Below are positions 1,201 to 18,391 of a stretch of 18,444 nucleotides of DNA, piece by piece (position 1 is the first letter of the stretch; the number at the start of each line of letters is the position of its first letter). The position numbers were made by a program, and so were the translations under genes. The notes under the pieces were generated by a model. That model was not told where the DNA came from. It was given only the letters and a program-made list of their open reading frames with translations, and made no database searches. Source of the DNA: Candidatus Rokuibacteriota bacterium. GTDB lineage: Bacteria > Methylomirabilota > Methylomirabilia > Rokubacteriales > CSP1-6. The DNA lies in contig JACPCX010000156.1 of assembly GCA_016184305.1 (NCBI GenBank), forward strand, positions 1-18,444. The letters are read 5' to 3'.

Positions 1201-1222
1201 TGGGACGATTCCGCGTACCGCC

Positions 1223-1618: not shown

Positions 1619-1636
1619 TGGTGTACGGTAGCGACC

Positions 1637-2377: not shown

Positions 2378-2387
2378 GACGCGCCTC

Positions 2388-2603: not shown

Positions 2604-2936
2604 TGAACGCTCCTTGTTCGGCCATGCGGGTGTGGGTGCGCCCCTCGCGGAACGCCGGGCCCCGCGTCACGCGCAGGTGGAAGGGAATGGCGGTCTTCGG
2701 GCCCTCGACGACGAAGGCTCTCACCGCCGCCTCCATGCGGGCGATCGCCTCCTCGCGCATCGCGCCCACGGCCACCAGCTTGGCCAGCAGCGGGTCGTAG
2801 TGTACCGAAACCAGGCAGCCTTCGGCGACCCCCTTTTCTGCTGGATCACGCGCCACGAGGGGCCGACGAGAACGAGCCCCGCTTCCTCGCAGGCCTGGAC
2901 GAAGGGCCAGTTCTCAGAGACGAAGCCGTGGCGGGA
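2596..2936 (-). pseudogene. Biotin carboxylase remnant (5'-truncated, frameshifted, large internal deletion)
   Basis: HGFVSENWPFVQACEEAGLVLVGP (canonical GYGFLSEN) at ~2930-2858, a frameshift into WRVIQQ, then directly the C-terminal GVAEG..VSVHYDPLLAKL...REEAIARM segment. Confidence 0.85.
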
Positions 2937-3306
2937 GCCTGTCCTCGCTGAGGCTACCGGCCACGGCCGGCTTCGCCGCCGAGTTCCTGAGGTTTCTCGG
3001 CGCCTGGCAACCGCGCCATCCGTGGTGGCTGTTTCCGGGTGTTAGGAGATTCCCCGCGCGGCCCGGGCCCTCGGCCCCTTGCCCGGTGCCCCAGGGCCGC
3101 TCCTTGACTGCGCGCCCACGCCGGGGGCAGGATGCCCTGAGGCCGAAGGGCCATCGCTGCAGCCACCCCTCGCCTTCTCCCCCATGATGCTGGCGTTCCC
3201 GGGTGCCGGGTCGAGGTTCCGGGGGTCCCGGGTTCCCCCGGAGGGGCCGGAGGGAAGGTCCGGCCCGTGACTGCTTCCCAGCCCACGAGCCCACGGAGGA
3301 CGATCA

Positions 3307-4473
3307 ATGGCCCTCGACGCCACGGCGTACCGCAACTTCAAGCAGGAGATGACCGGGTTCATCTGGAAGGAGCTCGACCCGTACGAGCACGAGATCGAGC
3401 GGACCGGGGAGATCCCCCGCGACGACCTCTTCCCGAAGCTCCGGCGGATGCGGTGCTTCGGGCTCACGGTGCCGGAGGCGTACGGCGGCGTCGGGCTGTC
3501 CGTCTCGCAGTACGTCCCGATCCTCGCCGAGCTCTCGAAGATCCACGGCGGCATCCGCGTGATCGTGCACGTCCACAACATGACCGCGAAGGCGGTCGCC
3601 GCGCTCGGCAGCGAGGAGCAGAAGCGGGCGCTGCTGCCGAAGATCGCCACGGGCGAGTGGTCGGTCGCGTTCGGGCTCACGGAGCCCGACGCGGGCACCG
3701 GCCGGGACCTCAAGACGCGCGCGGTCCGCGACGGCGATCACTTCGTGGTGAACGGCAGGAAGCACCTCATCACCAACTCCGAGTTCGCCAGCCACTTCAT
3801 GGTCTTCGGCTACACGGATCCGAGCCGTGGCGCGCGCGGCATCAGCGCGCTCATGGTCGACCGCGGCACGCCGGGCTTCACCATCGCCGACATGCCGGAG
3901 ACGATGGGGTGCCGGGGCGGCCAGCACGGCTACCTGACCTTCAAGGACTGCCGGGTGCCCGTCACGAACGTCCTCGGCACGGAAGGCGAGGGCCTGCTGC
4001 AGATGACGGCGGCCCTCGAGACCAGCCGGCTCTTCATCGCGGCGACGTCGCTCGGCACGGCCGAGCGCGCGCTCGAGCTCTCGCTGGAGTTCGCGAAGAA
4101 GCGCTCGACGTTCGGCAAGCCGATCGCGGAGCGCCAGGCGGTGCAGGCGTACCTGGCCGACATGGCGACGGACATCTACGCCCTGCGCACGATGGTCACC
4201 GACGCCGCGCACAAGGCCGACCGCGGCGAGCGCATTCCCGCGGAGGCGTCCATGTGCAAGCTGTTCGGCCTCGAGGCGGTCGGCCGCGTCACCGACCGGG
4301 CGCTGCTGGTGCACGGCGGCGTCGGCTACACGCGGAAGTATCCCATCGAGCGGCTCTACCGGGACGCGCGGCTGAACTGGGTCGAGGAAGGCACGCCGAC
4401 CATCCAGCGCCTCGTCATCGCCCGCGAGTTCCTCGAGGGCTACCGGTGGACGAGCGATCGTGATCTCGGCTGA
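3307..4473 (+). CDS. Acyl-CoA dehydrogenase
   Basis: 388 aa; FGLTEPDAG, VNGRKHLITN, RSTFGKPI, HGGVGY, YRDARL..EGT motifs; GGAGGA RBS upstream. Confidence 0.95.
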   Translation: MALDATAYRNFKQEMTGFIWKELDPYEHEIERTGEIPRDDLFPKLRRMRCFGLTVPEAYGGVGLSVSQYVPILAELSKIHGGIRVIVHVHNMTAKAVAALGSEEQKRALLPKIATGEWSVAFGLTEPDAGTGRDLKTRAVRDGDHFVVNGRKHLITNSEFASHFMVFGYTDPSRGARGISALMVDRGTPGFTIADMPETMGCRGGQHGYLTFKDCRVPVTNVLGTEGEGLLQMTAALETSRLFIAATSLGTAERALELSLEFAKKRSTFGKPIAERQAVQAYLADMATDIYALRTMVTDAAHKADRGERIPAEASMCKLFGLEAVGRVTDRALLVHGGVGYTRKYPIERLYRDARLNWVEEGTPTIQRLVIAREFLEGYRWTSDRDLG

Positions 4474-5131
4474 CCCGGCCGCCGTCAGGACGAGGGTCGG
4501 CGCCGTGCTCGCCGACCGCGCCGCTCGCGATCCCGGCCACCCGTCCCTCGAGTGCGATCGCGTGGTGCCCGGTTACACCGAGGTGGACGACCGGGATGCC
4601 CCGCTCCCGCCGGGGCAGGTCGGCGAGATCGTCTACCGCAGCCACGAGCCGTACACGATGATGCTCGGCTACTACCGGAACCCCGACGCCACGCTCGAGG
4701 CCCGGCGCAACTTGGGGTTCCACGCCGGCGACCTCGGCTCCCTCGACGAGGACGGCTATCTGCACTTCGTCGACCGCAAGAAGGACTCGATGCGGCGGCG
4801 CGGCGAGAACATCTCGTCGTACGAGGTCGAGAAGGTCGTGAACGACCATCCGGCGGTGCTCGAGTCCGCTGCCGTCGGGGTGCCGGCCGAGCTCGGCGAG
4901 GACGAGGCGAAGATCGTCGTCGTGCTGCGCCCGGGAGAGGCGTTGCGACCGGAGGCGCTCGTCGCCTGGTGCGAGCGGCGCGTGCCGAACTTCATGGTCC
5001 CGCGCTCCGTCGAGTTCGTCGACGCGCTGCCGAAGACGCCGAACGAGAAGGTCCAGAAGCACCGCCTCCGCGAGACCGCTGTCGCCGGCGCGTGGGACCG
5101 CGACCGCGCGGGAGGCCGCGTGGCGCGATAG
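4460..5131 (+). pseudogene. Acyl-CoA ligase (CaiC-like AMP-binding enzyme) with a large in-frame internal deletion
   Basis: About 33 N-terminal residues joined to the C-terminal part (GEI..R, GYY, GDLG, DRKKD..RRRGENIS, LPKT...K). The TSGTTG.PKG and YGxTE motifs are absent; 223 aa versus roughly 500+ typical. Confidence 0.85.
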
Positions 5132-5265
5132 GAGCCGACCGCATGGATCTCGCGTGCAAGTCCCATTCGGGAACATGGGGGCCTTCCTCGTGGTGGAGGC
5201 CGTGGCCCAGTCGGACGGGAGCGTCCGGCCTCGATGGGGCGCGTTCCGCCCGGCTCGGCGGTGCC

Positions 5266-5557
5266 CTATATCCGGCCGAGGGCCAGGTCGGGCACCCGCT
5301 CGAAGTGGCGGCGATTGCGGGTGAGGAGAACCCCGCGCTGCGCCAGCACGATGCCCGCGATCAGGCTGTCTCCCATCCCGATCGCGAGCCCCTGCTTCTC
5401 GAGTGTCCGGCGGACCTCGGCAGCGCGGTCGGCAGCGGTCTCATCGAGCGGCAAGCAGGGCAGCGCCGCCAGGAGCTCGGCGATCAGGCCTTGCTGGCGG
5501 GGGGTGCGGGCGCCTGCGAGGAGCTCGAACCGGGACATCCGTGTCGGCGATCATCAT
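5266..5557 (-). pseudogene. vapC: VapC/PIN toxin with an internal deletion and frameshift
   Basis: MMIADTDV starts at an ATGA overlap with the antitoxin. The rest (SRFELLAG...GDSLIAG...TRNRRHF) is in another frame; the 292-nt span is not a multiple of 3. Confidence 0.85.
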
Positions 5558-5793
5558 CGCCAGGATCGTCTGATCTCGGCGGTGGACGCGCGGAGACTCT
5601 CCGCCTCCTTCGGTCGGAGCGCTCCCTTCAGCATCAGCGCCCGTTTCCGCGCCCCGCCGCGCCCCTGCTGGGCCTTGAGATACGCCTCCAGGGCTTCGGT
5701 GACGAGCTGCGAGAAGCCCTTCTGGCCTCGGCGGGCGGCCAGGGCGAGGAGGCTCGCCCGATGCTCCGGCTTGATCTCGATGGTGGTGCGCAT
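5554..5793 (-). CDS. VapB-like antitoxin (ribbon-helix-helix type)
   Basis: 79 aa MRTTIEI...LLALAARRG..GFSQLVTEALEAYL...EIRRSWR, coupled to a PIN gene. Confidence 0.8.
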   Translation of the reverse strand: MRTTIEIKPEHRASLLALAARRGQKGFSQLVTEALEAYLKAQQGRGGARKRALMLKGALRPKEAESLRASTAEIRRSWR

Positions 5794-5799
5794 GGTGCG

Positions 5800-5828
5800 A
5801 GTATGCATGCACGTGCATGTAGAAGCAA
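5800..5828 (-). promoter_or_regulatory. Probable vapBC promoter with operator palindrome
   Basis: TTGCTT-N17-CATACT on the minus strand, 6 nt before the ATG (leaderless). A perfect 14-bp palindrome CATGCACGTGCATG (5806-5819) lies in the spacer. Confidence 0.7.
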
Positions 5829-6109
5829 CGAAGTCCTCTCCGGCCCGAGGTCGGGGGGTGTGCCGCGAGCGTCCAACCCAAGCCCGGCCGACGGCCGCTC
5901 TCCGCGTCGCCGCCACGCCGCCGCTCGTCCTCTCCCCAGGGGGACTGGTCGGGGCATCGGCGGACCCGGCAGGGTGGTTGCGCGCTGCGTCAACGTGGCG
6001 GCGGCGGCATCGGGACGGCTGTGGAGGACGAGTCCCACCCGGGTGGGCCACCGGGGCGAGTGGAGGACAGCCGGGTGCACAGGAATCCAGCTCCCTGCCC
6101 CCGCTCCCC

Positions 6110-6287
6110 CACCGAACGACCTATTGAACCTAGTGCATCCGGCTAAGAATCTGGGAAGGCGGTCGGTCGGGCCCTGAAATTGCTGTAAACTCATCTCGCC
6201 CGCTCCGCCGCCCAGGCAATCGAGTCCAGCGGAGCCACGGTGCGAGGCTCAATAATTCGACCCAATGCGTCATTGCGGGAGTGCGAC
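6110..6287 (+). promoter_or_regulatory. Likely promoter/leader region of the kor-por-rnf operon
   Basis: Locally lower GC non-coding stretch with several -10-like hexamers (e.g. TAAACT 6186-6191) and a GGGAG RBS. No exact promoter assignable. Confidence 0.35.
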
Positions 6288-8207
6288 ATGACAATGGCTC
6301 CGTCCTCACCGCCGCCCCCCACCGCGGCATCGTCGCAGCAGGCGCGCCCGGAGCGGAGGAGCCTCCGCGTCCCCGAGCACACCGTCGAGGTTGTCTCCGA
6401 CTCCGGCGAGGGCGCCCAGAAGTGCGCCCAGATCTTCGGCCGGGTCTCGGCGAAGATGGGCAACGGCGTGTGGACCGTGGAGATCATCCCCGCCGAGATC
6501 CAGCCGCCGGCGCGCACGCCAGAGAGCGCCAGCGGCAACCGCATCCGGATCGGCACGAAGCCGGTAACCAACTGGGGTGACCACGCCGATGTCGTCGTGG
6601 CCTTCAACGAGCAGGTCCTCCTCCACCGCCACCGGCTGGGCGCGCTGGCGGAGGACGCCATCATCCTGATCGAGGACCAGTGGGCGACCCATGACGATCC
6701 GGACATCCGCAAGGCATGGGCCGACGCCATGGAGGAGCTCGGCGGGCGGTCCTACCGCTTCATCCACGTGCCCATGGAGGAACAGTGCCTCACGGTGACG
6801 GACACCCCGCGCCGCGGCAAGAACATGTTCGCGCTCGGTCTGCTGGCGTGGATCTACTCCCGCGACCTCGACAAGATCCGGGAGCTGATCGCCCAGGAGT
6901 TCCGCAAGAAGGCACAGGCGCTGTACGACACGAACGTGGCGTTGCTGGAGCTGGGGCACCGCTGGGGCGAGGAGCACCTCGACTTCCGGATCCAGGTGCC
7001 CGCGATCGAGGCGGACCGGCCCAGGGTGGTCATGAACGGGAACCAGGCCCTGGCCATGGGCGCCATCGCCGCGGGGATGGAGCTCTGCGCCATGTACCCC
7101 ATCACCCCCGCGACCTCCGCCTCGCATTACCTGAGCGACATCTTCGAGCGGTTCGGCGGCATCGTCCACCAGGCTGAGGACGAGATTGCGGCCGCCGGGG
7201 TCGCGGTCGGCGCGTCGTTCGCGGGCAAGGTGGCCTTCGCCATCACCTCCGGCCCCGGCCTGGCGCTCAAGACCGAGTTCATCGGCCTGGCGGTGATGAC
7301 CGAGATCCCGCTCGTCGTGGTCGACGTGCAACGTGGAGGCCCGAGCACCGGGTTGCCGACCAAGGTCGAGCAGGGCGATCTCCTGGCCGCCCTGTTCGGC
7401 CAGCCGGGCGACGCCCCGCACGTCGTCCTCGCCCCGGCCACCATGGAGGAGTGCTTCCTCTCCATGACGACAGCCCGTCGCATCGCCGAGGCCTTCCGCT
7501 GCGTCGTCATCGTGCTCTCGGACGCGAACCTCGCCACCGGCGTGCAGCCCTTCCCGCGGCCGGAGGTGAACGAGCAGTGGCTGGCCCAGTCGCCCGATCT
7601 GGGCCCGGTGCGCGAGGGCCTGCGCCCCTACGAGTGGGACCCCGAGCGCGGCCTCTCGCGCCGGGTCATCCCCGGCCAGCCCGGAGGCATGCACACGGTG
7701 ACGGGCCTGTCCCATGACGAGTGGAGCCACGTGGGCTATACCCCTGACGTCCACGAGCGCGGCTGCGTGATGCGGAGCCGCAAGCTCGCGGTTTTCCAGC
7801 AGATGCTCAAGCCGCCCCCGGTCCACGGGGACGACGCAGGCGACCTCCTGATCGTCGGCTGGGGCAGCACGCTCGGCGCGATCGAGGAGGCCGTCGACCG
7901 GGCCCGGGAGGAGGGGGTGGCGGTCTCGTCGCTCCACCTCCGGTTCCTTTCGCCGCTCGAGCCGGGGCTCAAGGAGATCTTCCGGCGCTTCAAGAAGGTG
8001 ATGACGGTCGAGATCAACTACAGCGACGAACCGGACGACCCGTACATCACGGACGAGAACCGCCGGCGCGGCCAGCTCTGCTGGCTCCTCCGCGCCCAGA
8101 CGCTCGTGGACATCGAGTGCTGGACGCGCGTCCCGGGCGAGCCGCTGCGTCCCGGGCAGATCCTCGAGGCGATCCGGGGTCACGTGCCGCAGGAGGTCAC
8201 GAGATGA
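6288..8207 (+). CDS. korA: 2-oxoacid:ferredoxin oxidoreductase alpha subunit (fused gamma-alpha)
   Basis: DSGEG, GKNMFALG, GNQALAMG, YPITPA, QAEDEIAA, TSGPG, QRGGPSTGLPTK motifs. Substrate specificity is not determinable. Confidence 0.93.
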   Translation: MTMAPSSPPPPTAASSQQARPERRSLRVPEHTVEVVSDSGEGAQKCAQIFGRVSAKMGNGVWTVEIIPAEIQPPARTPESASGNRIRIGTKPVTNWGDHADVVVAFNEQVLLHRHRLGALAEDAIILIEDQWATHDDPDIRKAWADAMEELGGRSYRFIHVPMEEQCLTVTDTPRRGKNMFALGLLAWIYSRDLDKIRELIAQEFRKKAQALYDTNVALLELGHRWGEEHLDFRIQVPAIEADRPRVVMNGNQALAMGAIAAGMELCAMYPITPATSASHYLSDIFERFGGIVHQAEDEIAAAGVAVGASFAGKVAFAITSGPGLALKTEFIGLAVMTEIPLVVVDVQRGGPSTGLPTKVEQGDLLAALFGQPGDAPHVVLAPATMEECFLSMTTARRIAEAFRCVVIVLSDANLATGVQPFPRPEVNEQWLAQSPDLGPVREGLRPYEWDPERGLSRRVIPGQPGGMHTVTGLSHDEWSHVGYTPDVHERGCVMRSRKLAVFQQMLKPPPVHGDDAGDLLIVGWGSTLGAIEEAVDRAREEGVAVSSLHLRFLSPLEPGLKEIFRRFKKVMTVEINYSDEPDDPYITDENRRRGQLCWLLRAQTLVDIECWTRVPGEPLRPGQILEAIRGHVPQEVTR

Positions 8208-9157
8208 TCGACCAGGCGTGCTCGCTGCTGAGCTGCGGCCCCGATGAGGACCGCGAATGGACCATTTCGGACTACGAGAGCGCGGCGGCACGCTGGTGTC
8301 CGGGCTGCGGGGACCACGCGATCCTCACCGCAGCGCAGCGGCTCCTCGAGACCGAGCAGCTGCCGCCCGAGCAGACGGTCTTCGTCTCGGGGATCGGCTG
8401 CGCGAGCCGGTTTCCGCATTACATGAACACGTACGGCTTCCACGGGATCCACGGCCGGGCCTTGCCGGTCGCGATCGGCGTCAAGCTGCGTCGCCCGGAC
8501 CTGCACGTCTTCGTGGTCATGGGGGACGGCGACTGCTGCTCCATCGGGGCCGCCCACTGGATCCACACCCTCCGCTACAACCCCGACATCGTTGCGCTCC
8601 TGCTCGACAACGGCGTGTACGGGCTCACGAAGAACCAGACGTCGCCCACGAGTCCGAAGGGCAAGGCGAGCAATACGCAGCCGCGCGGCGCGCTCCTGCC
8701 CCCGCTGAACCCGCTCTCCGCCACCCTCGGCGTGACGAACGCCTCGTTCGTGGCGCAGACGGGCGACTGGGTCCCCGCCCATCTCTACGCGACGCTGCTG
8801 GCGGCGTACCGCCACCGCGGCTTTGCGTTCGTGCGCATCCTGCAACGGTGCCCGCAGTACACGACGGATCTGTTCGAGGGCGCCGTGCGCGATCCGGGGC
8901 TGATCGAGCTGCTGGTCCACCCGGACGGGGTCGCCGTCCCCGAGATCGAGCGCCTCTACAAGAATCAGGTGCGGCACGATCCCGCGGATCTCGACGCGGC
9001 CCGGCGTCTGGCCGAACCCGACGGGAAGATCCGCCTCGGGGTGTTCTACCGGAATGACACGCTGCCGGTGTACGAGGAGATGCGCGCCGTGCCGACCCGG
9101 TCCCACGCCGAGAAGCTCGCCCTGCTCAACACGGAGCTCGACCGCCATGCCGTCTGA
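8204..9157 (+). CDS. korB: 2-oxoacid:ferredoxin oxidoreductase beta subunit
   Basis: WCPGCGD, SGIGC, HGRALP, GDGD TPP motif, NGVYGLTKNQ; ATGA overlap with korA. Confidence 0.95.
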   Translation: MIDQACSLLSCGPDEDREWTISDYESAAARWCPGCGDHAILTAAQRLLETEQLPPEQTVFVSGIGCASRFPHYMNTYGFHGIHGRALPVAIGVKLRRPDLHVFVVMGDGDCCSIGAAHWIHTLRYNPDIVALLLDNGVYGLTKNQTSPTSPKGKASNTQPRGALLPPLNPLSATLGVTNASFVAQTGDWVPAHLYATLLAAYRHRGFAFVRILQRCPQYTTDLFEGAVRDPGLIELLVHPDGVAVPEIERLYKNQVRHDPADLDAARRLAEPDGKIRLGVFYRNDTLPVYEEMRAVPTRSHAEKLALLNTELDRHAV

Positions 9158-10169
9158 GGACCGCGCCGGCCTGGCCCTGGATGCCTTCAAGAAGCCGATC
9201 GCCGCGTTCCGCGCGACCCTGGCGGCCACCGCCGACGAGGTCCGCGGCTACCTCGCGACGCGGCAGTCGAGCTGGGAGGGGAAGGTTGCGCGCGTCGGCG
9301 CCGAGCTTGGGCCCCTGGCCATCGGGCGGATCGACTTCGAGCGCTTCGCCACCCTCGTGGAAGATCAGCCGGACGCCTCCCCGGCCGCCCTCGAGACCCT
9401 CGGCGGCGCCCTCGCGGCGCTGGGCGACCTCGCCGGGCGGAGCGAGCAGCTGTACATTGTCGAGGTCCCTGCCGGCGGGAGCCTCCACGAGGTGGTGGGG
9501 CGCGCGCTCGCGGAGATCGGCCGGGCCTTCAGCGCGGCGCGCCTCGTGTCCGAGGTCCGGGCGGGGCGGTTCGAGCCGGACGGTGGCGGTGTCGCGGTGG
9601 GGCCGCTGCCCTTCTCGCTGTGGACCAAGGCCGAGCGCCGGCTCGCGCCTCCCCTCGTGGTGCGGGTGCAGGGCCGTGACCTCCGGGCCGCCGGGCTTGC
9701 CGAGTTCCTCGACGGGCGCCAGCGCCTTGTCCTCGTGGTCGAGGGCGAGTGCGCCCCGGCGCCGCTCGGACGGCTCATCACGCCGGGGATCTTCGTGCTG
9801 CAGAGCGCCGACGGCTCCGGGCTGGACCGCCTCCTGGCCTGGGACGGACCCGGCATTGCCGCGCTCGTCCCGGACTCGGCGGCGCGCTTCGCCCATGACC
9901 CGAGCGGCGGAGCGGCAGCGTGGGAGCGCCTCCGCATCGAGTTCCTCCCCGATCGCGCCGCGCGCCGGGCCATCGGGGGCTTGAGTGGGGCGCAGCAGAT
10001 GGAGGAGATCGAGCTGCTCCGGAGCCTCGCGACCCGCCCGGCGGGTGGCGAGACGCGCCCGGCCGGCCCCGAACCTGCGGATGCTGCCGCGGGGCTTAAC
10101 GCGGCCGACCCCGCCGACAAGCTCGCGGCGTGGCTCCTGAGCCGTGTGGACCTCTCCGATGCCGGGTGA
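9147..10169 (+). CDS. Hypothetical protein, degenerate paralog of the PFOR TPP-binding domain
   Basis: 340 aa, overlaps the korB stop and ends 3 bp before rnfB. Colinear similarity to the downstream PFOR (see findings). Confidence 0.8.
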   Translation: MPSEDRAGLALDAFKKPIAAFRATLAATADEVRGYLATRQSSWEGKVARVGAELGPLAIGRIDFERFATLVEDQPDASPAALETLGGALAALGDLAGRSEQLYIVEVPAGGSLHEVVGRALAEIGRAFSAARLVSEVRAGRFEPDGGGVAVGPLPFSLWTKAERRLAPPLVVRVQGRDLRAAGLAEFLDGRQRLVLVVEGECAPAPLGRLITPGIFVLQSADGSGLDRLLAWDGPGIAALVPDSAARFAHDPSGGAAAWERLRIEFLPDRAARRAIGGLSGAQQMEEIELLRSLATRPAGGETRPAGPEPADAAAGLNAADPADKLAAWLLSRVDLSDAG

Positions 10170-10172
10170 CCC

Positions 10173-11051
10173 ATGGACGCCCTGAGCCCCACGGCCATCG
10201 CCGGCTCAGCCGTGATCCTCGGGGGTGTCGGCCTTTTCTTCGCCGCCCTAATCGCGGTCACGAACCGCAAGTTCCGGGTCTGGGAGGATCCGCGCATCGA
10301 TGTGGTGGCCGGGCTTCTGCCGGGCGCCAATTGCGGCGCGTGTGGCCAGCCCGGGTGCCGGGCTTTCGCGGAACAGGTCGTCCAGGGCGTGATCGTCCCC
10401 GCGTTGTGCTCGGTGGCCAGCCCGGACGTCCGCTCGGACATCGCCGGCTACCTGGGGGTTGACGTGGGCCAGGCGGTGCAGCGGGTCGCCCGCCTGCTCT
10501 GCGCGGGCGGGCGGGACGCGGCCCCGGACCGCGTGGACTACCGGGGGCTCGGCACGTGCAAGGCGGCGGCCGCGGTGGCCGGCGGCGGCAAGGGCTGTGT
10601 GTGGGGCTGCCTGGGCCTCGCCGACTGCGAGGTCGCCTGCACCTTCGACGCGATCGACATGAACGAGGTCGGGTTGCCGGTGGTGGTCCCGGCCAAGTGC
10701 ACGGCCTGCGGCGACTGCGTCGAGGCGTGCCCGAGGGATCTGTTCACCATCATGCCGATGGAGCAGCGGCTCCTCGTGCAGTGCAAGAGCCTGCTCGAGG
10801 GCGAGGCGGCAGACCGCCTGTGCCGGGTCGCCTGCAACGGCTGCGGCAAGTGCGTCCTGGACGCCGCGCCAGGCGTCATCGCGATGAAAAATGGGCTGGC
10901 GGTCGTGGACTACGCGCAGAATGACCTTGCGGGGCCTGAAGCCACGCGCCGGTGTCCCACCGGCGCGATCGTCTGGGTGGAGGGCGAGCAGTTCGCCAGG
11001 CGCGCCCCCATTGCGGCGGCCGTCCGGCCCGCCGAGGAGGCAGTGGCATGA
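10173..11051 (+). CDS. rnfB: Rnf complex subunit B
   Basis: N-terminal TM helix, EDPRI, LPGANCGACGQPGC, GCLGLADCEVAC, CTACGDCVEACP, CNGCGKC...CP. Confidence 0.93.
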   Translation: MDALSPTAIAGSAVILGGVGLFFAALIAVTNRKFRVWEDPRIDVVAGLLPGANCGACGQPGCRAFAEQVVQGVIVPALCSVASPDVRSDIAGYLGVDVGQAVQRVARLLCAGGRDAAPDRVDYRGLGTCKAAAAVAGGGKGCVWGCLGLADCEVACTFDAIDMNEVGLPVVVPAKCTACGDCVEACPRDLFTIMPMEQRLLVQCKSLLEGEAADRLCRVACNGCGKCVLDAAPGVIAMKNGLAVVDYAQNDLAGPEATRRCPTGAIVWVEGEQFARRAPIAAAVRPAEEAVA

Positions 11052-14000
11052 AATTCCGCAAGCACGGGGCTCCTTCCGCCCCGCCGAAGTACCCGGGGAT
11101 CCCGACTGCGGTCGACGGCAGCGCCGCCGTCGTCGAGATGGAAACGGCGGCGAGCGAGGCGGCCGGCGCGTACCCGATCACGCCCTCCACCCAGATGGGC
11201 GAAGGCTGGGCGGCCGCCCTCGCTGCCGGCAAGACCAACGTCAACGGGCGCCACCTGCTCTTCTTCGAGCCCGAGGGCGAGCACGCCGCCGCCGCCGTCA
11301 CCGCCGGGATGAGCATGGTCGGCCTGCGCGCCACCAACTTCTCGAGCGGGCAGGGCATCGCCTACATGCACGAGTCGCTCTACGCGGCGGTGGGCAAGCG
11401 GCTGACCTACGTGCTCAACATCGCCGCCCGCGCCATCACCAAGCACGCGCTCAATGTCCACGCCGGCCACGACGACTATCACGCGGTGGACGACACCGGC
11501 TTCTTCCAGCTCTTTGCCAAGAACGTGCAGGAGGGGGCCGACCTCAACCTGGTCGCCCACCGGATCGCCGAGCTGTCGCTGAACCCCGGCATCTGCGCCC
11601 AGGACGGCTTCCTCACCAGCCACGTCATCGAGTCGTGCCGGCTGCCCGAGCGCGAGCTGGTGCGCGAGTTCCTCGGGGATCCATCGGACATCATCGAGTC
11701 TCCGACGCCGACCCAGCGCCTCGTCTTCGGCGAGCGCCGCCGCCGGATCCCCGAGATGTTCGACCTGGACAGCCCGACCATGCTCGGCGTCGTCCAGAAC
11801 CAGGACGCCTACCAGCAAGGCGTGGCCGCGCAGCGCCCGTTCTACTTCGACCACGTGGCGGCCCTGGCCGACCGCGCCTTCGACGAGTACGCGGCGCTCA
11901 CCGGCCGGCGCTACGCGCGGGCCTCCGGCTACCGCATCGAGGACGCCGAGTACGTGATCATCGGCCAGGGCTCGGTGGTGTGGAATGCCGAGGCGGTGGC
12001 CGACCACCTGCGCGCGACGCGGAAGCTGCGGGTCGGCGTCGTCAACCTGACCATGTTCCGGCCCTTCCCGGCCGACCTCCTCGTCGCGCTGCTGCGCGGC
12101 AAGCGGGGCGTCGTCGTCCTCGAGCGGGTGGACCAGCCGCTCGCGGTGGACGCGCCGCTCTTGCGCGAGATCCGGGCGGCGATGGGCAAGGCCGTCGAGA
12201 ACGGGCGGGCCCGGGGCGGGAGCCTGGCCCATCCCGGGCTTCCGGCCTGTGCCCCGGACGAGGTGCCCGATTTCTACTCCGGATGCTTCGGGCTCGGCAG
12301 CCGTGACCTGCAGCCCACCGACCTCATCGCCGCGGTGGACAACATGCTCGATGGCGGCACGCAGCGCCGCCAGTTCTACCTCAGCATCGAGTTCATCCGG
12401 CCGAAGACGCGGCTGCCGAAGCTGCAGATCTGGCAGGAGCGGCTGCTCGAGAGCTACCCGGACATCGCCGGCCTGGCGCTGGCGCCGGCGGCCGACGTCA
12501 ACCTCCTGCCCGCAGGCTCGCTCTCGCTCCGCATCCACTCGGTGGGGGGCTGGGGCGCGATCACGATGGGCAAGAACCTCGCGCTGACGGCCGCGGAGCT
12601 GCTCGGCCTGCACATCAAGGCCAACCCGAAGTACGGCTCGGAGAAGAAGGGCCAGCCGACCACGTTCTACGCCACCCTGGCCCGGGAGCCCATCCGGCTC
12701 AACTGCGAGCTGCGTCACGTGGACGTCGTGCTCTCCCCCGATCCCAACGTGGCCCGCCACTCCGACCCGCTGGCCGGGCTCGCCGAGGGCGGGGTGTTCG
12801 TCATCCAGAGCGATCGCTCGGGCGAGGAGCTGTGGGCGAGCTTCCCGATGCGGATCCAGCGCGCCCTCAAGGACCGGAAGATCCGCGTCTACTCCCTGGA
12901 CGCTTTCCGCATCGCCAGCGACGAGGCGTCCGGGGCCGAGCTCCGTTACCGCATGCAGGGCGCGGCCTTCATGGGCGCGTTCTTCCGGGTGGCCCCGTTG
13001 CTGCAGGGCCAGGGCATCGACGAGGCCAAGCTCTTCGCCGAGATCCGCAGCCAGCTCGTGAAGAAGTTCGGACGGCTCGGCGCCCACGTGGTCGAGGAGA
13101 ACCTGCGCGTCATCCGCCGCGGCCACGACGAGGTCCGCGAGCTCGACGTGGCCGCGTACGAGGTGTCCACGACCGAGATCGGGCGCGTTCCCGAGCGCCC
13201 GGGCCGGCTCGATGGAGACCGGAGCCAGAGCCCCCTCGGCAGCCCCGGGCGGTTCTGGGAGCAGGTCGGCTCCCTCTACGCGACCGGCCAGGATGGGATC
13301 GCCGATCCCTGGGCCGCCACCAGCGCGCTGCCAGCGGCGACGAGCACGATCCGCGACATGACGGCGGTGCGCATGGAGGTGCCGGAGTTCGTGCCGGCCA
13401 ACTGCACAGGCTGCGGCCAGTGCTGGACCCAGTGCCCCGACACCGCGATCCCCGGCGTGGTCAGCCAGATCGACGAGGTCTTCCAGGCGGCGATACGCTT
13501 CGCCGCCAACGGCGGCTCCCTCGACCGCGTGCGGCAGATCGTCAAGCACCTTGCCAGTGAGTCGCGCCGGATCATGCGGGACACGCCCTTCACGACATTC
13601 GGCGACGTGGCGGCGGTTGCCTACACGAACGTCGCCGAGAAGCTCGCCTACGCGCCGGAGCGGCGGGCGGTCCTCGACGCGGAGTGGGCGCCCGTGCAGG
13701 CAGCGCTGGCCGAGTTCCCGCTCGCGAAGACCGCGCCCTTCTTCGACATGCCGGAGTCCCGGACCAAGGGCAGCGGCGGCCTCCTGTCGATCACGGTGAA
13801 CCCCGCGACGTGCAAGGGCTGCAACATCTGCGTCTCGGTGTGCCCGGACGAGGCGCTGCGGACGGTCAAGCAGGACGCGGGAGTGATCGAGCGCCTGCGC
13901 CGCAACTGGAAGCTCTGGGATCTCCTTCCCGAGACCGACGACCGCTATATCAACATCGCGAGCCTGGAAGAGGGCATCGGGACCCTGCCGTCCCTCCTCC

Positions 14001-16054
14001 TCAAGAAGACGAACTACCTCTCCATGCTGGGCGGCGACGGCGCCTGCATGGGCTGCGGCGAGAAGACGATCCTGCACCTCGTCTTCTCCGCGCTCAATGC
14101 CCTCATGCAGCCGCGGGTCAAGGCCCATGTCGAGCGCCTCGACGGGCTGATCGCGCGCCTGGACGACAGGGCCCGGCGCATCCTCGCCTCGGAGGCCGAT
14201 CTCACGCGGGTGGCGGGGAGGTCGGGTTCGATCGACGTGCCGCTCGCCGAGACGAAGAAACAGGAGGTGGAGCGCATCGCGGGGATCATCCGCGCCCTGC
14301 GCGACCTCCGCTGGCGGTACACGGAGGGGCCGACGGGCACCGGCCGCGCGACATGCGGCATCGCGAACTCGACGGGGTGCTCCTCGGTGTGGGGGAGCAC
14401 CTACCCCTACAACCCCTACCCGGTTCCGTGGGTGAACCACCTCTTCCAGGACGCTCCCAGCGTGGCCATCGGGATCTTCGAGGGGCACATGCGGAAGATG
14501 GCCGACGGCTTCGCGGCCGTGCGGCGCGCCGAGCTCGAGCTCGGCGGCGGTTACGATCCCGCGACGCACGAGGCGGAGCTCGCCAAGCTCGACTGGCGCC
14601 GCTTCAGCGACGAGGAGTTCGCCCTCTGCCCGCCCATCCTCGCGGTGGGCGGCGACGGGGCCATGCTCGACATCGGCTTTCAGAACCTCTCGCGGCTGCT
14701 GGCCTCCGGCAAGCCGGTCCGCGTCGTGATGCTCGACACGCAGGTCTACTCGAATACCGGCGGCCAGGCGTGCACGAGCGGGTTCCTCGGCCAGGTGAGC
14801 GACATGGCGGAATTCGGGCCCGGCCAGCGCGGCAAGGAGGAGACGCGCAAGGAGCTCGCGCTCCTCGCCATGGCCCACCGCAATGTGTTCGTGCTGCAGT
14901 CCTCCCAGGCCTCGCCCTCCCACCTGCTGGCCGGCGTGCTGCGGGGGCTCCAGTCGCGCTACCCGGCGGTGTTCTCGCTCCACTGCCCGTGCCCGCCCGA
15001 GCACGGGGTCGGCGACGAGGCGGCGCCCCACGCGGCGAAGCTTGCGCTCGAGAGCCGCGCCGTCCCGCTGCTGGTCTACGACCCCGCGACGGGGCCGAGG
15101 CTCGCCGATCGGCTGAACCTGGACGGCAACCCGTCTGTCGACGAGCCCTGGCCCACGTACGAGCTCACGTACGTGGACGAGGGCGGCGCCGAGCAGATGA
15201 TGGAGCTGCCGGTCACGGTGGCGGACTGGGCCTGCACCGAGACGCGGTTCCGGAAGCACTTCTCCCGGATCGCCGCCGGCGCCGGGGAGGAGGAGCCGGT
15301 GCCCTTGCACGAGTACCTGGCGCTTGCCAAGGACGACCGCGCCGGCAAGACGCCATTCATCTACACCCTCGAGGCCGGGCGGAAGCTCGGACGCCTTGCC
15401 GTCACCGATGAGATCGTCCGCCTCGCCGAGGACCGCCGGGAGCTGTGGACCCTCCTGCGCGACATGGCCGGGCTCAAGGCACCGGAGACGGTCGCGGCCG
15501 AGGCCGAGCTCGAGCAGCGGGTGGTTGCGCTGCGCGCCGAGTACGAGGCCAAGCTGGCCGACCTCAAGGCGCGCTACCCGTGGGTCATCGCGCGGCGCCT
15601 GGCCGAGGACCTGCTGCGGGCCAGCAACGGCGGGACGCCGATCGGTGAGCTGCTCGCGAAGGTCGATGCCCTGCCGGCCATGCCGCGGCCGCGCGGCGCC
15701 GGGGGCACCGCAGTTGCGCCGGCCCCCGCGGCGGCCGAGACGGCCGTGGCGAGCCTCGAAGCGGCGCCCGCGGCGCCGGCCGCAGCCGAGGCCGGCGAGG
15801 CTTTCACCATGGAGCCGTACATCGACTCGGCGCTCTGCACGGCCTGCAACGAGTGCACGAACTTGAACAAGCGGCTGTTCGCCTACAACGCCAAGAAGCA
15901 GGCCTATATCAAGGACCCGAAGGCCGGCAAGTTCAGGGAAATCGTGCAGGCCGCCGAGAAGTGTCCCGTGAAGATCATCCACCCCGGCTCGCCGCTCAAC
16001 CCGGCCGAGAAGGACCTGGACAAGTGGATCAAGCGCGCCCAGCCCTTCAATTGA
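11048..16054 (+). CDS. por: Large single-chain pyruvate(2-oxoacid):ferredoxin oxidoreductase with an extra C-terminal ferredoxin
   Basis: 1668 aa; YPITPS, YGSEKKG, two CxxCxxCxxxCP motifs, ACMGCGE, GCSSVWG, GGDG, YSNTGGQ, CPC; ATGA overlap with rnfB. Confidence 0.93.
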   Translation: MKFRKHGAPSAPPKYPGIPTAVDGSAAVVEMETAASEAAGAYPITPSTQMGEGWAAALAAGKTNVNGRHLLFFEPEGEHAAAAVTAGMSMVGLRATNFSSGQGIAYMHESLYAAVGKRLTYVLNIAARAITKHALNVHAGHDDYHAVDDTGFFQLFAKNVQEGADLNLVAHRIAELSLNPGICAQDGFLTSHVIESCRLPERELVREFLGDPSDIIESPTPTQRLVFGERRRRIPEMFDLDSPTMLGVVQNQDAYQQGVAAQRPFYFDHVAALADRAFDEYAALTGRRYARASGYRIEDAEYVIIGQGSVVWNAEAVADHLRATRKLRVGVVNLTMFRPFPADLLVALLRGKRGVVVLERVDQPLAVDAPLLREIRAAMGKAVENGRARGGSLAHPGLPACAPDEVPDFYSGCFGLGSRDLQPTDLIAAVDNMLDGGTQRRQFYLSIEFIRPKTRLPKLQIWQERLLESYPDIAGLALAPAADVNLLPAGSLSLRIHSVGGWGAITMGKNLALTAAELLGLHIKANPKYGSEKKGQPTTFYATLAREPIRLNCELRHVDVVLSPDPNVARHSDPLAGLAEGGVFVIQSDRSGEELWASFPMRIQRALKDRKIRVYSLDAFRIASDEASGAELRYRMQGAAFMGAFFRVAPLLQGQGIDEAKLFAEIRSQLVKKFGRLGAHVVEENLRVIRRGHDEVRELDVAAYEVSTTEIGRVPERPGRLDGDRSQSPLGSPGRFWEQVGSLYATGQDGIADPWAATSALPAATSTIRDMTAVRMEVPEFVPANCTGCGQCWTQCPDTAIPGVVSQIDEVFQAAIRFAANGGSLDRVRQIVKHLASESRRIMRDTPFTTFGDVAAVAYTNVAEKLAYAPERRAVLDAEWAPVQAALAEFPLAKTAPFFDMPESRTKGSGGLLSITVNPATCKGCNICVSVCPDEALRTVKQDAGVIERLRRNWKLWDLLPETDDRYINIASLEEGIGTLPSLLLKKTNYLSMLGGDGACMGCGEKTILHLVFSALNALMQPRVKAHVERLDGLIARLDDRARRILASEADLTRVAGRSGSIDVPLAETKKQEVERIAGIIRALRDLRWRYTEGPTGTGRATCGIANSTGCSSVWGSTYPYNPYPVPWVNHLFQDAPSVAIGIFEGHMRKMADGFAAVRRAELELGGGYDPATHEAELAKLDWRRFSDEEFALCPPILAVGGDGAMLDIGFQNLSRLLASGKPVRVVMLDTQVYSNTGGQACTSGFLGQVSDMAEFGPGQRGKEETRKELALLAMAHRNVFVLQSSQASPSHLLAGVLRGLQSRYPAVFSLHCPCPPEHGVGDEAAPHAAKLALESRAVPLLVYDPATGPRLADRLNLDGNPSVDEPWPTYELTYVDEGGAEQMMELPVTVADWACTETRFRKHFSRIAAGAGEEEPVPLHEYLALAKDDRAGKTPFIYTLEAGRKLGRLAVTDEIVRLAEDRRELWTLLRDMAGLKAPETVAAEAELEQRVVALRAEYEAKLADLKARYPWVIARRLAEDLLRASNGGTPIGELLAKVDALPAMPRPRGAGGTAVAPAPAAAETAVASLEAAPAAPAAAEAGEAFTMEPYIDSALCTACNECTNLNKRLFAYNAKKQAYIKDPKAGKFREIVQAAEKCPVKIIHPGSPLNPAEKDLDKWIKRAQPFN

Positions 16055-16061
16055 CCCTCTT

Positions 16062-17387
16062 GTGTGGGACCATCTGAAGTTCCGCCACGGCGTCCACCCA
16101 CCGGAGCTGAAGGAGCTCACGGCCCGGATCGCGATCCGGCGGGTGCCATACCCGGACGAGGTGGTGCTGCCGCTCCGCCAGCACGCGGGCAAGCCCGCCC
16201 GCCCCGTTGTCAAGGCCGGCGACCGGGTCGAGCGCGGGGATGTGCTCGCGGAGCCCGACGGGTACGTCTCGACGCCGGTACACGCCTCCGCGGCGGGGAC
16301 GGTCGAGCAGATCTGCCTGTGGCCGCACCCCGACGGGTCGTACGCCCCGGCGGTCCGGATCGCGGTGGACCGCTACTCGCCGCAGGCGCCCCGACCGCGG
16401 CTGGTCCCGGACTGGACGCGGCTCGAGCCGCCCGAGCTCGTCGAGGCCATCCGCCAGGCCGGGGTGGTCGGCCTCGGGGGCGCGGCGTTCCCCACCCACG
16501 TCAAGCTCGCGCCTCCCAAGGGCCAGGTCGTCGACACCGTCCTGATCAACGGCTGCGAGTGCGAGCCGTACCTCACGACCGATCACCGCACGATGGTCGA
16601 GTATTCGGACCGGGTCCACCTGGGCCTGCGCATCATGATGCGCTGCCTGGGGGCGACGCGCGCGATGATCGGCATCGAGCTGAACAAGCCCGACGCCATC
16701 GCCGCCATCCGCCGGACGCTTCCCTCCGATCTGGACGTGACCGTCCAGGAGCTCGAGGTGAAATACCCGCAGGGCGCGGAGAAGATGCTGATCAAGGCGC
16801 TCCTCGACCGCGAGGTGCCGTCCGGCAAGCTCCCGCTGCACGTGGGCGTCGTCGTGCAGAACGTCGCCTCGGCGGCGACGATCGCCGAGGTGTTCGAGAC
16901 GGGGCTCCCACTGGTCGAGCGCATCGTCACCGTGACGGGGCGCGGGGTCACGCGGCCGTCGAACCTCATCGTGCCCGTCGGCATGAAGCTCCGCGACCTG
17001 ATCGACGCGTGCGGTGGCTTCACGGCGGACGCGCGGGAGATCGTGTTCGGCGGCCCCATGATGGGGTTCGCCCAGGCGCACCTGGACACGCCGCTGGTCA
17101 AGGGCACGAGCGGCGTCGTGGTGCTCGCCGCGGCCGAGACCAAGCCCACCGTGTCGTACCCCTGCATTCGCTGCGGGCACTGCCTGGATTCCTGCCCGGT
17201 CTTCCTCAACCCGCAGCTCCTCGGCCAGCTCGCCCTCAAGGAGCGCTGGGAAGAGATGGAGACCAACCACCTGGCCGACTGCATGCTCTGCGGCTGCTGC
17301 GGTTACACGTGCCCGTCCAACATCCCCCTGCCGCAGCTCTTCGCGCTGGCGAAGGCCGCGCTCCGCAGGCGCCCGGCCCCGGCATGA
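16062..17387 (+). CDS. rnfC: Rnf complex subunit C
   Basis: GVHP, QHAG, HASAAG, GVVGLGGAAFPTHVKL, NGCECEPYLT.D, YPQGAEK, GGPMMG, CIRCGHCLDSCP, CMLCGCCGYTCP. Confidence 0.95.
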   Translation: MWDHLKFRHGVHPPELKELTARIAIRRVPYPDEVVLPLRQHAGKPARPVVKAGDRVERGDVLAEPDGYVSTPVHASAAGTVEQICLWPHPDGSYAPAVRIAVDRYSPQAPRPRLVPDWTRLEPPELVEAIRQAGVVGLGGAAFPTHVKLAPPKGQVVDTVLINGCECEPYLTTDHRTMVEYSDRVHLGLRIMMRCLGATRAMIGIELNKPDAIAAIRRTLPSDLDVTVQELEVKYPQGAEKMLIKALLDREVPSGKLPLHVGVVVQNVASAATIAEVFETGLPLVERIVTVTGRGVTRPSNLIVPVGMKLRDLIDACGGFTADAREIVFGGPMMGFAQAHLDTPLVKGTSGVVVLAAAETKPTVSYPCIRCGHCLDSCPVFLNPQLLGQLALKERWEEMETNHLADCMLCGCCGYTCPSNIPLPQLFALAKAALRRRPAPA

Positions 17388-18391
17388 GCCACCCGTCTCT
17401 TCTCATCACCGCCTCCCCCCACCTCGCCGCGGGGGACAGCACGCCGAAGATCATGTGGACCGTCGTGGTGAGCCTGGCGCCGATCGTGGCCGTTGCCACG
17501 TACTTCTTCGGCCCGAGCGCTCCGCTCGTGGTGGCGGCCGCCACCGCCGGCGCGGTGGTGATCGAGCGCGCCTTCGACCGCCGGGGCACCCTCCGTGACG
17601 GCTCGGCGGTGATCACCGGGATCCTGCTGGGGCTCACGCTGCCGCCCGGGCTGCCGCTGTGGATGGCCTTCACCGGCGGGGTGTTCGGCATCGCCATCGG
17701 CAAGCTCGTCTTCGGCGGGCTCGGCCAGAACGTGTTCAACCCCGCCTTGCTGGGGCGCGCCTTTCTCCAGGCCGCGTTCCCGGTGGCGCTGACGACGTGG
17801 CCCGTGCCAGCCGCGGGCGGCTGGTGGAGTCTGCGCGGGGACATCTTCGCGCTGCCATTCGCGAGCCCGCGGGCGCTGGAGACAGTGACCGGCGCCACGC
17901 CGCTGGGCCGGATGAAGTTCGACCACCAGGCCACGCCGTTCCTCGACCTCGTCCTGGGCACCACCTCGGGCTCGCTGGGCGAGACGTCGGGGCTCGTGAT
18001 CCTCCTCTGTGGCAGCTACCTGGCATTGCGCAACTACCTCAACTGGCGGATCCCGGCGAGCATCTTCGCCACCGTCGCCGTCGTCGCCGCCGGCCTGCAC
18101 ACGCTCGATCCGGCCCGCTACCCGGGCGCGGCCTTCATGCTCTTCTCCGGGGGGCTCATGCTGGGCGCCATGTACATGGCCACCGATCTCGTCACCTCGC
18201 CGGTGACGAATCCCGGCTGCTGGCTCTTCGGGGCCGGCATCGGCCTGCTCGTCGTCGTCATCCGGATCTGGGGCGGGCTCGCCGAGGGCGTGATGTACGC
18301 CATCCTCATCATGAACGCCTTCGTTCCCTTCCTGAACCGCTGGACGCAGCCCCGGGTGTTCGGCTCAGCTGGGCTGACGGTGCGCTCGTGA
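17384..18391 (+). CDS. rnfD: Rnf complex subunit D
   Basis: SPH, FGGLGQNVFNPA, TGATPL FMN-attachment motif, GSLGETS, MATD.VTSP, EGVMYAIL; ATGA overlap with rnfC. Confidence 0.95.
   Translation: MSHPSLLITASPHLAAGDSTPKIMWTVVVSLAPIVAVATYFFGPSAPLVVAAATAGAVVIERAFDRRGTLRDGSAVITGILLGLTLPPGLPLWMAFTGGVFGIAIGKLVFGGLGQNVFNPALLGRAFLQAAFPVALTTWPVPAAGGWWSLRGDIFALPFASPRALETVTGATPLGRMKFDHQATPFLDLVLGTTSGSLGETSGLVILLCGSYLALRNYLNWRIPASIFATVAVVAAGLHTLDPARYPGAAFMLFSGGLMLGAMYMATDLVTSPVTNPGCWLFGAGIGLLVVVIRIWGGLAEGVMYAILIMNAFVPFLNRWTQPRVFGSAGLTVRS

Follow-up and report, generated by a model that had tools for sequence, protein, structure and literature searches.

A ThDP-fold relative of pyruvate:ferredoxin oxidoreductase domain VI that has lost its cofactor motifs, encoded between korB and rnfB, is probably a non-catalytic subunit of KorAB

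2-Oxoacid:ferredoxin oxidoreductases (OFORs) and the Rnf complex are central to ferredoxin-dependent carbon metabolism, and the hand-over of electrons from soluble OFORs to Rnf is an open question. Multi-subunit OFORs have extra small subunits, namely delta, which is a ferredoxin, and, in five-subunit enzymes, epsilon. In solved OFORs, domains I, II and VI make up the protomer-protomer interface, and III and V lie exposed; domain VII of the Desulfovibrio africanus pyruvate:ferredoxin oxidoreductase (PFOR) and the C-terminal helix of the Sulfolobus tokodaii b-subunit are arms that lie over the neighbouring protomer (PMC5020499, section 5). Rnf in metagenome-assembled genomes (MAGs) of Rokubacteria, and a dimeric korAB and a 'PFOR-like' gene in a symbiont, are mentioned in PMC6064768 and PMC11636981, in passages that do not refer to the gene studied here. 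That gene, called HYP below, encodes a hypothetical protein and lies between korB and rnfB on contig JACPCX010000156.1 of a Candidatus Rokuibacteriota bacterium (assembly GCA_016184305.1), of which positions 1 to 18,444 were analyzed (the window). The full-text literature, with subscription journals largely outside it, held no description of the HYP family, of a thiamine diphosphate (ThDP)-fold OFOR pseudo-subunit or of this operon.

HYP is a ThDP-fold relative of PFOR domain VI that has lost its cofactor motifs, is under selection and is locked in one operon. It has probably been kept as a cofactor-less pseudo-enzyme, a non-catalytic subunit of KorAB, the 2-oxoglutarate enzyme encoded upstream, within an operon that combines two OFORs with the Rnf membrane complex. 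The comparison that carries the relationship is with a giant PFOR-like enzyme encoded downstream in the same window, whose residues are numbered by its open reading frame (ORF). It involves the following features:

9147..10169, + strand: HYP (P0003), 340 aa, ATG at 9147, open frame to the stop at 10169
9507..9959, + strand: HYP residues 121-271, the core aligned with PFOR domain VI, with the strands and helices of the PP fold
14489..15142, + strand: PFOR ORF residues 1180-1397, the part of domain VI aligned with HYP, with intact GGDG at 1233 and YSNTGGQ at 1266

A preliminary description of the window, made by reading the sequence, had presented HYP as an apparent dead copy of the ThDP domain of this PFOR on the grounds of short colinear blocks. 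All the blocks are present in the order it gave: GRID at 60 with GSID at 1092, LAALGDLAGR at 89 with IRALRDLRWR at 1113, an ungapped 43-residue block (HYP 128-170 with PFOR 1187-1229, exactly 10 identities), IFVLQS at 215 with VFVLQS at 1312, FAHDP... at 248 with LVYDP... at 1374, IELLRSLA at 288 with WTLLRDMA at 1499, and ADKLAAWLL at 323 with ARRLAEDLL at 1547. Profiles were then compared. They were built from 80 related loci out of species genomes and comprised 76 sequences for HYP and 49 for PFOR domain VI (ORF residues 990-1560), the latter being the PFOR of the window and 48 orthologues. With these, hhalign placed HYP 121-271 on PFOR 1180-1397 with a score of 43.8 (P 7.4e-5, probability 62%), and with the HYP core excised the probability was 72% (P 3.3e-5). 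Control profiles of PFOR domain I, domain III and N-part and of KorA, KorB, RnfB and RnfC all gave a P of at least 0.014. None of 200 shuffles attained the score: the maximum was 25.8 for 100 column shuffles and 33.9 for 100 shuffles of 10-column blocks, which keep local blocks and break their order, and the reversed template scored 19.5. When the HYP alignment (A1) was compared with the single PFOR sequence, E was 0.0048 at a probability of only 7%.

Three blocks, the 43-mer, FVLQS and F.HDP..G, fall within the aligned core. In consensus terms, the match consists of '..G.Y....H...L...F..W....E..L.PP' up to the strand ahead of GDG, 'V-D-G-A' of the HYP family over 'G-D-G-A' of PFOR, 'FV.Q(T/S)' over 'FVLQS', and 'F.HDP..G...RL' over 'L.YDP..G....L'. 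The parts of HYP on either side (residues 1-120 and 272-340) gave an hhalign P of at least 0.096 against the PFOR insert, tail and whole domain VI. The GRID, LAALGDLAGR, IELLRSLA and ADKLAAWLL blocks, four of the seven, lie in these parts and are unsupported. The proposed copy of the PFOR domain is therefore supported for the core, by profile and by fold, and unsupported for the N-terminal and tail parts.

The predicted structure of HYP leads to the same family. The AlphaFold2 model, made with 37 homologues, has a mean predicted local distance difference test score (pLDDT) of 86.2 and a predicted template modeling score of 0.78. It shows four or five N-terminal helices and an alpha/beta core with seven strands, followed by a disordered stretch (304-320, pLDDT < 50) and a final helix (322-333), and it has the three-layer alpha/beta PP fold. 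The ESM Atlas contains no structure of HYP. The Foldseek search that the preliminary description had proposed returned PFOR chains as all ten of its best matches (top 6ciq_B, E 3.5e-3, probability 0.93), though none at E <= 1e-3; oxalate oxidoreductase beta, DXS and transketolases came after them. A search with VIA-align, which is independent of Foldseek and covered 48,161 chains, ranked residues 812-1170 of the PFOR chain 6cin_A first (Z 8.5, root-mean-square deviation (rmsd) 7.0, 188 aligned), about two Z units above the second match, the M. acetivorans PFOR beta subunit (Z 6.6). Third was 8ys5_C of H. pylori OorDABC (Z 5.9), taken from its length to be OorB, and ranks 1-28 were all ThDP enzymes. 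A second look gave Z 8.7 for 6cin_C (rmsd 6.1, 181 aligned, model 1-296 on 812-1170) and Z 8.4 for 1b0p_A. This fold evidence is weighty because the list is uniform and agrees with the independent sequence-profile result. With the profile match and with PFOR 812-1170 first in the fold searches, a remote kinship of HYP with the ThDP (PP) domain VI of PFOR is borne out.

The cofactor-binding positions, in contrast to the fold, are degenerate or deleted. The parts of HYP concerned, together with others taken up below, are:

9666..9680, + strand: HYP 174-178 (VQGRD), degenerate GDG site for ThDP/Mg, family consensus V-D-G-A-D
9213..9356, + strand: HYP 23-70, N-terminal helices with ELGPFaxGRID, the main predicted KorA contact
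10035..10106, + strand: HYP 297-320, low-complexity Ala/Pro/Gly linker of variable length, with gapped, unconserved columns
10107..10157, + strand: HYP 321-337, conserved amphipathic C-terminal helix DP(V/A)DKLAAWLLxQADLS

VQGR (HYP 174-177) occupies the place of the PFOR GGDG, a replacement that the preliminary description had read correctly for the window but that does not extend to the family as a loss. Position 175 is D in 46 of the 76 orthologues, Q in the window and A, E, N or another residue elsewhere, and position 176 is G in 70 of the 76, so the GDG position is degenerate rather than gone. The second ThDP loop, YSNTGGQ, is deleted in HYP and kept in 47 of the 49 PFOR sequences, and the ThDP/Mg2+ motif GDG-(X24-27)-N is absent. 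The window's HYP has a single Cys, C202; this is the only recurrent Cys in the family (26/76), and 29 of the 76 sequences have none, which leaves no means of binding a cluster. The four Cys ligands of the OFOR-type proximal [4Fe-4S] cluster are missing. Column counts thus confirmed that the YSNTGGQ loop and the cluster cysteines are gone and that one Cys is left, all of which had been noted beforehand. HYP falls below the gathering threshold of TPP_enzyme_C (PF02775), and among sequence models its sole match is profile-profile, to domain VI of the neighboring PFOR. Since it scores under that threshold and has neither the GDG...N motif nor the cluster cysteines, HYP is classed here as a pseudo-enzyme derivative and not as a member of OFOR domain VI; homology, loss of the cofactor residues and purifying selection go together, with the inactivity predicted from sequence.

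The family conserves the following instead: ELGPFaxGRID (53-63, with L54 near-invariant at 97%, G55 invariant and D63 near-invariant), GRAF.AAR (125-132), W159, E163-R164, P168-P169, G176.D178, D189-G190, P204-A-P-L207, Q219, F248.H250-D-P252, S280..Q283-Q284 and the C-terminal DP.DKLAAWLL. The C-terminal helix is well conserved (L326 in 73/76, A327 in 74/76, W329 in 75/76 and L330 in 75/76). It lies outside the KorAB interface predicted below, and we regard it as a candidate docking helix.

HYP is a genuine gene under purifying selection. A word-indexed search in which 8000 candidates were scored gave 381 homologues at E <= 1e-3; those listed are 307-348 aa long, nearly all 323-348, and all the named ones are hypothetical proteins. 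An exhaustive search of representatives at 50% identity gave 467 family clusters at E <= 1e-3, 279 of them at E <= 1e-30, with members mostly from MAGs labeled Gemmatimonadota and Rokubacteria/Methylomirabilota. The ratio dN/dS was 0.10-0.38 in 21 phylogenetically independent pairs, somewhat above that of korA, korB, rnfB, PFOR and rnfC in the same pairs (0.035-0.32), and in more distant loci HYP is 41-51% identical compared to 60-77% for its neighbors. The gene is single copy in the window's genome. Fused forms of 596-2000 aa were looked for and none was found, which is weak evidence only. Metatranscriptome contigs from four libraries of four studies match HYP in part at 90-100% identity, and some span the korB/HYP and HYP/rnfB junctions. 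These contigs are a weak hint of expression, since such libraries can hold DNA; they leave stretches of the window uncovered, and the gaps are not evidence of anything.

The genes around HYP form a single co-directional row in the window:

6240..8207, + strand: korA, alpha subunit of a 2-oxoacid:acceptor oxidoreductase in which domains III, I and II are fused
8204..9157, + strand: korB, beta subunit, 317 aa, ThDP/[4Fe-4S] PP domain intact
10173..11051, + strand: rnfB, Pfam FeS and Fer4 domains, NCBIfam RnfB-type models
11045..16054, + strand: giant PFOR-like enzyme, 1669 aa, large insertions, C-terminal tethered single-cluster ferredoxin domain
16062..17387, + strand: rnfC, Pfam RnfC_N, Complex1_51K, SLBB and Fer4
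17384..18391 (start approximate), + strand: rnfD, Pfam NQR2_RnfD_RnfE, 1.6e-99

The korA product matches Pfam POR, POR_N and PFOR_II and scores 538 bits against NCBIfam TIGR03710 (cut-off 482.75); its real start may be a few codons 3' of 6240. The korB product matches TPP_enzyme_C (8.6e-26) and PFO_beta_C. The korB ATG at 8204 overlaps the korA stop (ATGA), and the last 11 nucleotides (nt) of korB, up to the end of its stop at 9157, overlap HYP from its ATG on.

Synteny was counted only over loci whose contig reaches the neighbor in question. Upstream of HYP, korB was found in 79/79 loci and korA in 69/69; downstream, rnfB was found in 78/78, the giant PFOR in 66/66 and rnfC in 44/44. Every sufficiently long locus has the order korA-korB-HYP-rnfB-PFOR-rnfC, and the overlap between the korB stop and the HYP start is exactly 11 nt in 71/71 loci with both termini aligned. 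HYP is thus encoded with, and coupled to, the catalytic subunits of KorAB. Linkage to kor, por and rnf genes and purifying selection were both expected from the preliminary description, and both were found.

The distribution of HYP across genomes follows the operon. In an even sample of 201 genomes from the window's phylum, HYP and the PFOR tail were each present in 9; of the 10 genomes with either, 8 had both, and the two exceptions are fragment matches in genomes that are 84% and 81% complete. In 201 genomes from the phylum of locus L020 (Gemmatimonadales), each of the two was present in 31, and 30 of the 32 genomes with either had both. In the genome with HYP alone, the contig that carries HYP and korA stops about 2 kb past HYP. 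The PFOR-only genome, G338, has an orthologue that is 63% identical over residues 2-1516 and is without the ferredoxin tail. This PFOR (L082, G338:C1:3924000-3943900, minus strand, 9120-13580) is isolated, about 6-9 kb to each side being free of kor, HYP and rnf genes, and the KorA of G338 is a paralogue only, with 35% identity (27% over a longer aligned stretch). An RnfC query found no match in G338 and G311, an empty answer that shows little. Since G338 has PFOR without HYP and without an orthologous KorA, HYP tracks the kor/rnf operon and not PFOR alone. The same PFOR suggests a link between the ferredoxin tail and the operon setting.

The source of HYP appears to lie in the giant PFOR itself. 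When domain VI of the giant PFOR was compared by phmmer with the solved PFORs 6cin and 1b0p, the alignment began at about ORF residue 1214, and the best-matching stretch of HYP (128-160) falls in PFOR 1187-1213, a segment not aligned to canonical PFOR. That the best match is in a segment absent from canonical PFORs argues for a duplication within the giant-PFOR lineage, and points to HYP having been copied from domain VI there. An origin of HYP as a copy of KorB was considered and rejected, as the match to the KorB profile is weak (P 0.014) and lies elsewhere.

Next, a complex of HYP with KorA and KorB was predicted. KorA 262-600, KorB and HYP were co-folded with 46-row alignments for each, in the same locus order. 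The interaction score derived from predicted aligned errors (ipSAE) was 0.85, 0.86 and 0.85. Controls in which the partner was exchanged scored 0.00 and 0.00, and a control in which KorA was exchanged scored 0.15. At least 72% of the contacts were common to the runs, and partner pLDDT was at least 77. In calibration, 116 of 157 solved complexes and 2 of 215 mismatched pairs scored at or above the mark. The model supports, but does not show, binding of HYP to KorA/KorB. That HYP is a pseudo-enzyme subunit, as the preliminary description proposed, finds its support in this model (0.85 against 0.15 for the best control). The predicted interface involves residues 23-35, 49-70, 127-138 and 160-166 of HYP, residues 399-455, 470-472, 521-526 and 568-574 of KorA, and residues 5-12 and 301 of KorB. 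In the single arrangement modeled, HYP contacts KorA away from its former cofactor loops, which bears on whether it pairs with a PYR domain.

Conservation is consistent with this interface, the HYP residues that take part in it being better conserved than the remainder of 1-170 (Mann-Whitney p 1e-5) and than the remainder of 1-300 (p 0.008). In five KorA paralogues that no HYP gene follows, 21% of the contact positions agree with the consensus of HYP-linked KorA vs 43% of positions elsewhere, and four of the five lack the invariant W447 of KorA through a deletion; the sample is small, and four of the five are closely alike. These data agree with contact positions that are specific to HYP-linked KorA. 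The KorB of HYP-linked loci carries a conserved extension at its N-terminus (residues 1-29, window 8204-8290), before the RWCPGCGD cluster motif. Its C6-S7-L8 is nearly invariant in 46 sequences, and residues 5-12 contact HYP in the co-fold. Because domains I, II and VI form the protomer interface in OFORs, HYP may cap that interface in an alpha-beta-HYP unit.

Taken together, we propose that a copy of PP domain VI of the giant PFOR would have lost its ThDP/Mg loops and [4Fe-4S] cysteines and would have been retained as a non-catalytic subunit of KorAB, the 2-oxoacid:ferredoxin oxidoreductase encoded upstream. It would be made by translational coupling to korB through the 11-nt overlap. Its N-terminal helices (ELGPFaxGRID), helix 127-138 and the W..ERR turn would be seated on KorA domains I and II and on both KorB termini, and the flexible Ala/Pro linker would leave the conserved amphipathic C-terminal helix free, possibly to dock on RnfB/C or PFOR. 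KorAB, itself devoid of a ferredoxin domain, could thereby be kept near the tethered ferredoxin of PFOR and near Rnf. We infer this tethering role, and the stoichiometry, from the arrangement just described.

Several results weigh against the proposal, and some of them lend themselves to other explanations. For the relationship with PFOR, the likeness is not above chance at the level of single sequences: BLASTP of HYP against the PFOR ORF gave a best E of 0.78, with the three core blocks as separate colinear high-scoring segment pairs at E 2.4 to 16, and the Smith-Waterman score was 40 against a shuffle mean of 41.7 (z -0.27). This was the pairwise alignment with shuffling that the preliminary description had suggested as a check, and 284 of 500 shuffles reached the real score; with cheap gaps, z was 2.0 and 12 of 300 shuffles reached it. 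The preliminary description saw something real, but the evidence available to it could not have shown so. HYP matched 0 families in Pfam (E <= 0.01) and 0 in NCBIfam, and a hidden Markov model of the 37 homologues gave 4 matches at E <= 10 among Protein Data Bank sequences, none of them an OFOR and the best being the sigma factor SigA (0.056). The hhalign probability is just 62-72%, Foldseek gave no match at E <= 1e-3, and a Z of 8.5 with an rmsd of 6-7 A is in the middling range for VIA-align. HYP could thus be an unrelated alpha/beta protein whose three-layer fold resembles ThDP domains by chance, for which the null pairwise tests, the lack of a library match, the modest Z and rmsd, and an otherwise uninformative ESM Atlas feature search that returned unrelated, mixed AAA/STAND/DUF families at 0.84-0.87 all speak. 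We consider this extremely improbable, as profiles and structure independently indicate the same domain of the same family, the register sets strand on strand and consensus D-G on GDG, shuffles never attain the score, and 28 of the 28 best among the 48,161 chains are ThDP enzymes with PFOR first. The survival of D175-G176 in most orthologues is a further difficulty, and so are the conserved loops on the former cofactor face (G176, D178, D189-G190, PAPL, HDP), which are off the KorA interface and are not explained by the model. This unexplained conservation keeps alive the explanation that HYP is a ligand sensor that regulates KorAB or PFOR and whose residual diphosphate site can still bind ThDP, a nucleotide or CoA. 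The most conserved loops (G176, D178, D189-G190, P204-A-P-L207, Q219, H250-D-P252) are indeed at the C-terminal ends of strands, and the frequencies of D175 and G176 would fit. The Mg-binding Asp is unconserved, however, the second ThDP loop is missing altogether, and a ThDP site requires a PYR domain across its cofactor face, a pairing not predicted in the single arrangement co-folded; a sensor is therefore distinctly unlikely.

Other weaknesses concern the partner. The calibration holds only roughly for self-made alignments and a three-chain job, and the co-folded KorA was without domain III and its last 55 residues and in one alpha-beta protomer, so HYP may have been placed where the real (alpha-beta)2 enzyme has no free surface. 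The predicted site, with domains I and II and the KorB termini, does overlap the inter-protomer interface described for solved OFORs in section 5 of PMC5020499. This could also be expected of a transient factor for the assembly or protection of O2-sensitive KorAB, which might shield the protomer interface or a cluster during maturation, and the faster evolution of HYP than of its neighbors would suit such a factor. The start/stop overlap with korB in 71/71 loci instead suggests equimolar synthesis, and no chaperone-like feature was found, so that we hold a transient role to be very unlikely. Another possible explanation is that HYP is an adaptor for the giant PFOR or for Rnf (RnfB/RnfC) and not for KorAB, its PFOR-type surface being kept to cap, pair with or anchor PFOR on the membrane complex. 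HYP is nearest to PFOR domain VI and not to KorB (P 7.4e-5 vs 0.014), stands directly ahead of rnfB in 78/78 loci, co-occurs with the PFOR tail and has a conserved C-terminal helix that the KorAB model leaves unused, and the truncated KorA may have biased the co-fold. Against this, KorA/KorB, the sole partner co-folded, passed by a wide margin and fell to 0.15 with KorA replaced, the 11-nt coupling is with korB, and G338 has the PFOR orthologue with no HYP and no orthologous KorA, RnfC not being found with the query used. An adaptor of this kind is in our view unlikely. A non-catalytic subunit of KorAB remains the probable role, and it can be extended, as a speculation that we would not expect to hold but take somewhat more seriously, to a membrane super-complex in which KorAB, through HYP, and the giant PFOR both sit on Rnf. 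The body of HYP would grip KorA/KorB and its helix would plug into RnfB/C or PFOR, and the oxidation or synthesis of two 2-oxoacids would be wired directly to an ion-motive NAD+/ferredoxin machine without free ferredoxin. If true, this could let largely aerobic phyla of soil and groundwater carry out oxygen-sensitive ferredoxin chemistry, possibly a reductive carboxylation driven by membrane potential.

Some further observations were made on the neighbors of HYP. The giant PFOR has 1669 aa, compared to about 1170-1230 in solved PFORs. It matches Pfam POR_N, PFOR_II, POR, Fer4, TPP_enzyme_C and Fer4_13 (ORF residues 1624-1677) and scores 384 bits against TIGR02176, under the cut-off of 911. In its domain VI, about 100 inserted residues separate CxxC from the third cluster Cys; the enzyme's Fer4 region is split, and a C-terminal Ala/Pro linker bears the Fer4_13 single-cluster ferredoxin domain; the gene lies between rnfB and rnfC in 66/66 loci that reach far enough. 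In one cluster representative, P0164 (457 aa), HYP 1-295 runs straight into the tail helix, linker and Fer4_13 of the giant PFOR (Fer4_13 E 2.2e-4, just under the Pfam cut-off). It looks as if P0164 came from a deletion of rnfB and most of PFOR, or from an assembly join. We rejected it as an ancestral intermediate, since on reading the sequences (no figure was computed) its tail resembles the PFOR tail about as closely as an orthologue's would. Directly upstream of the operon, three loci have another korAB pair, which is divergent (L051, 2010-4524; L057, 1940-4493; L062, 2082-4534). Its KorA is 34% and its KorB about 50% identical, no HYP gene follows it, and the N-terminus of its KorB is without the CSLL.C motif of HYP-linked KorB.

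Upstream of the operon, the window has an acyl-CoA dehydrogenase gene at 3307-4473 and then a 223-aa frame at 4460-5131 with an AMP-binding_C domain only. The roughly 1.1 kb between that frame and korA contain long open frames on both strands that match no Pfam family. A minus-strand frame of 86 aa at 2596-2856 has Biotin_carb_C as its sole match (3.4e-19), and may be a fragment or a piece of a gene read in pieces.

These data define a formerly unannotated family of hundreds of members that is fixed in a korAB-x-rnfB-PFOR-rnfC operon, and a 'hypothetical protein' thereby gains a name and a fold. If HYP is a subunit or tether of KorAB, it would be the first ThDP-fold OFOR pseudo-subunit found in our full-text literature search and would provide a direct handle on whether OFOR-Rnf assemblies exist.

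Among known systems, PFOR domain VI (Moorella thermoacetica 6CIN, Desulfovibrio africanus 1B0P and the giant PFOR) is the best structural match to HYP (Z 8.5-8.7 to 812-1170). The two are colinear over the strands that precede GDG and the second ThDP loop, over the FV.Q strand and over the Y/H-D-P turn, and domain VI of the giant PFOR shares with HYP a segment absent from canonical PFOR. Unlike PFOR domain VI, HYP is a free-standing protein of 340 aa in which GDG is degenerate, YSNTGGQ is deleted and the cluster cysteines are missing, and its N-terminal helices and C-terminal linker and helix have no detectable counterpart there. The beta subunits of two- and four-subunit OFORs (KorB, M. acetivorans PFOR beta 9BT4, S. 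tokodaii b-subunit 5B48, M. marinus OGOR 6N2N_B, H. pylori 8YS5_C) have the same fold (Z 4.9-6.6). HYP shares the FV.QT strand motif with KorB and both are encoded beside an alpha subunit, but KorB keeps CPGCG, GDGD and the N-loop, none of which HYP keeps, and their profile match (P 0.014) is in another region. By analogy, the C-terminal helix of HYP is like the arms of OFORs in being a short helix that ends a domain-VI-type module and is held off the body. Those arms are part of the catalytic chain, whereas the HYP helix is on a disordered linker of about 25 residues, and no sequence likeness between them was found. Finally, HYP is like the delta and epsilon subunits of OFORs in being an accessory, non-ThDP protein encoded in an OFOR operon, but the delta subunits are ferredoxins with clusters, while HYP has a ThDP fold without cluster ligands.

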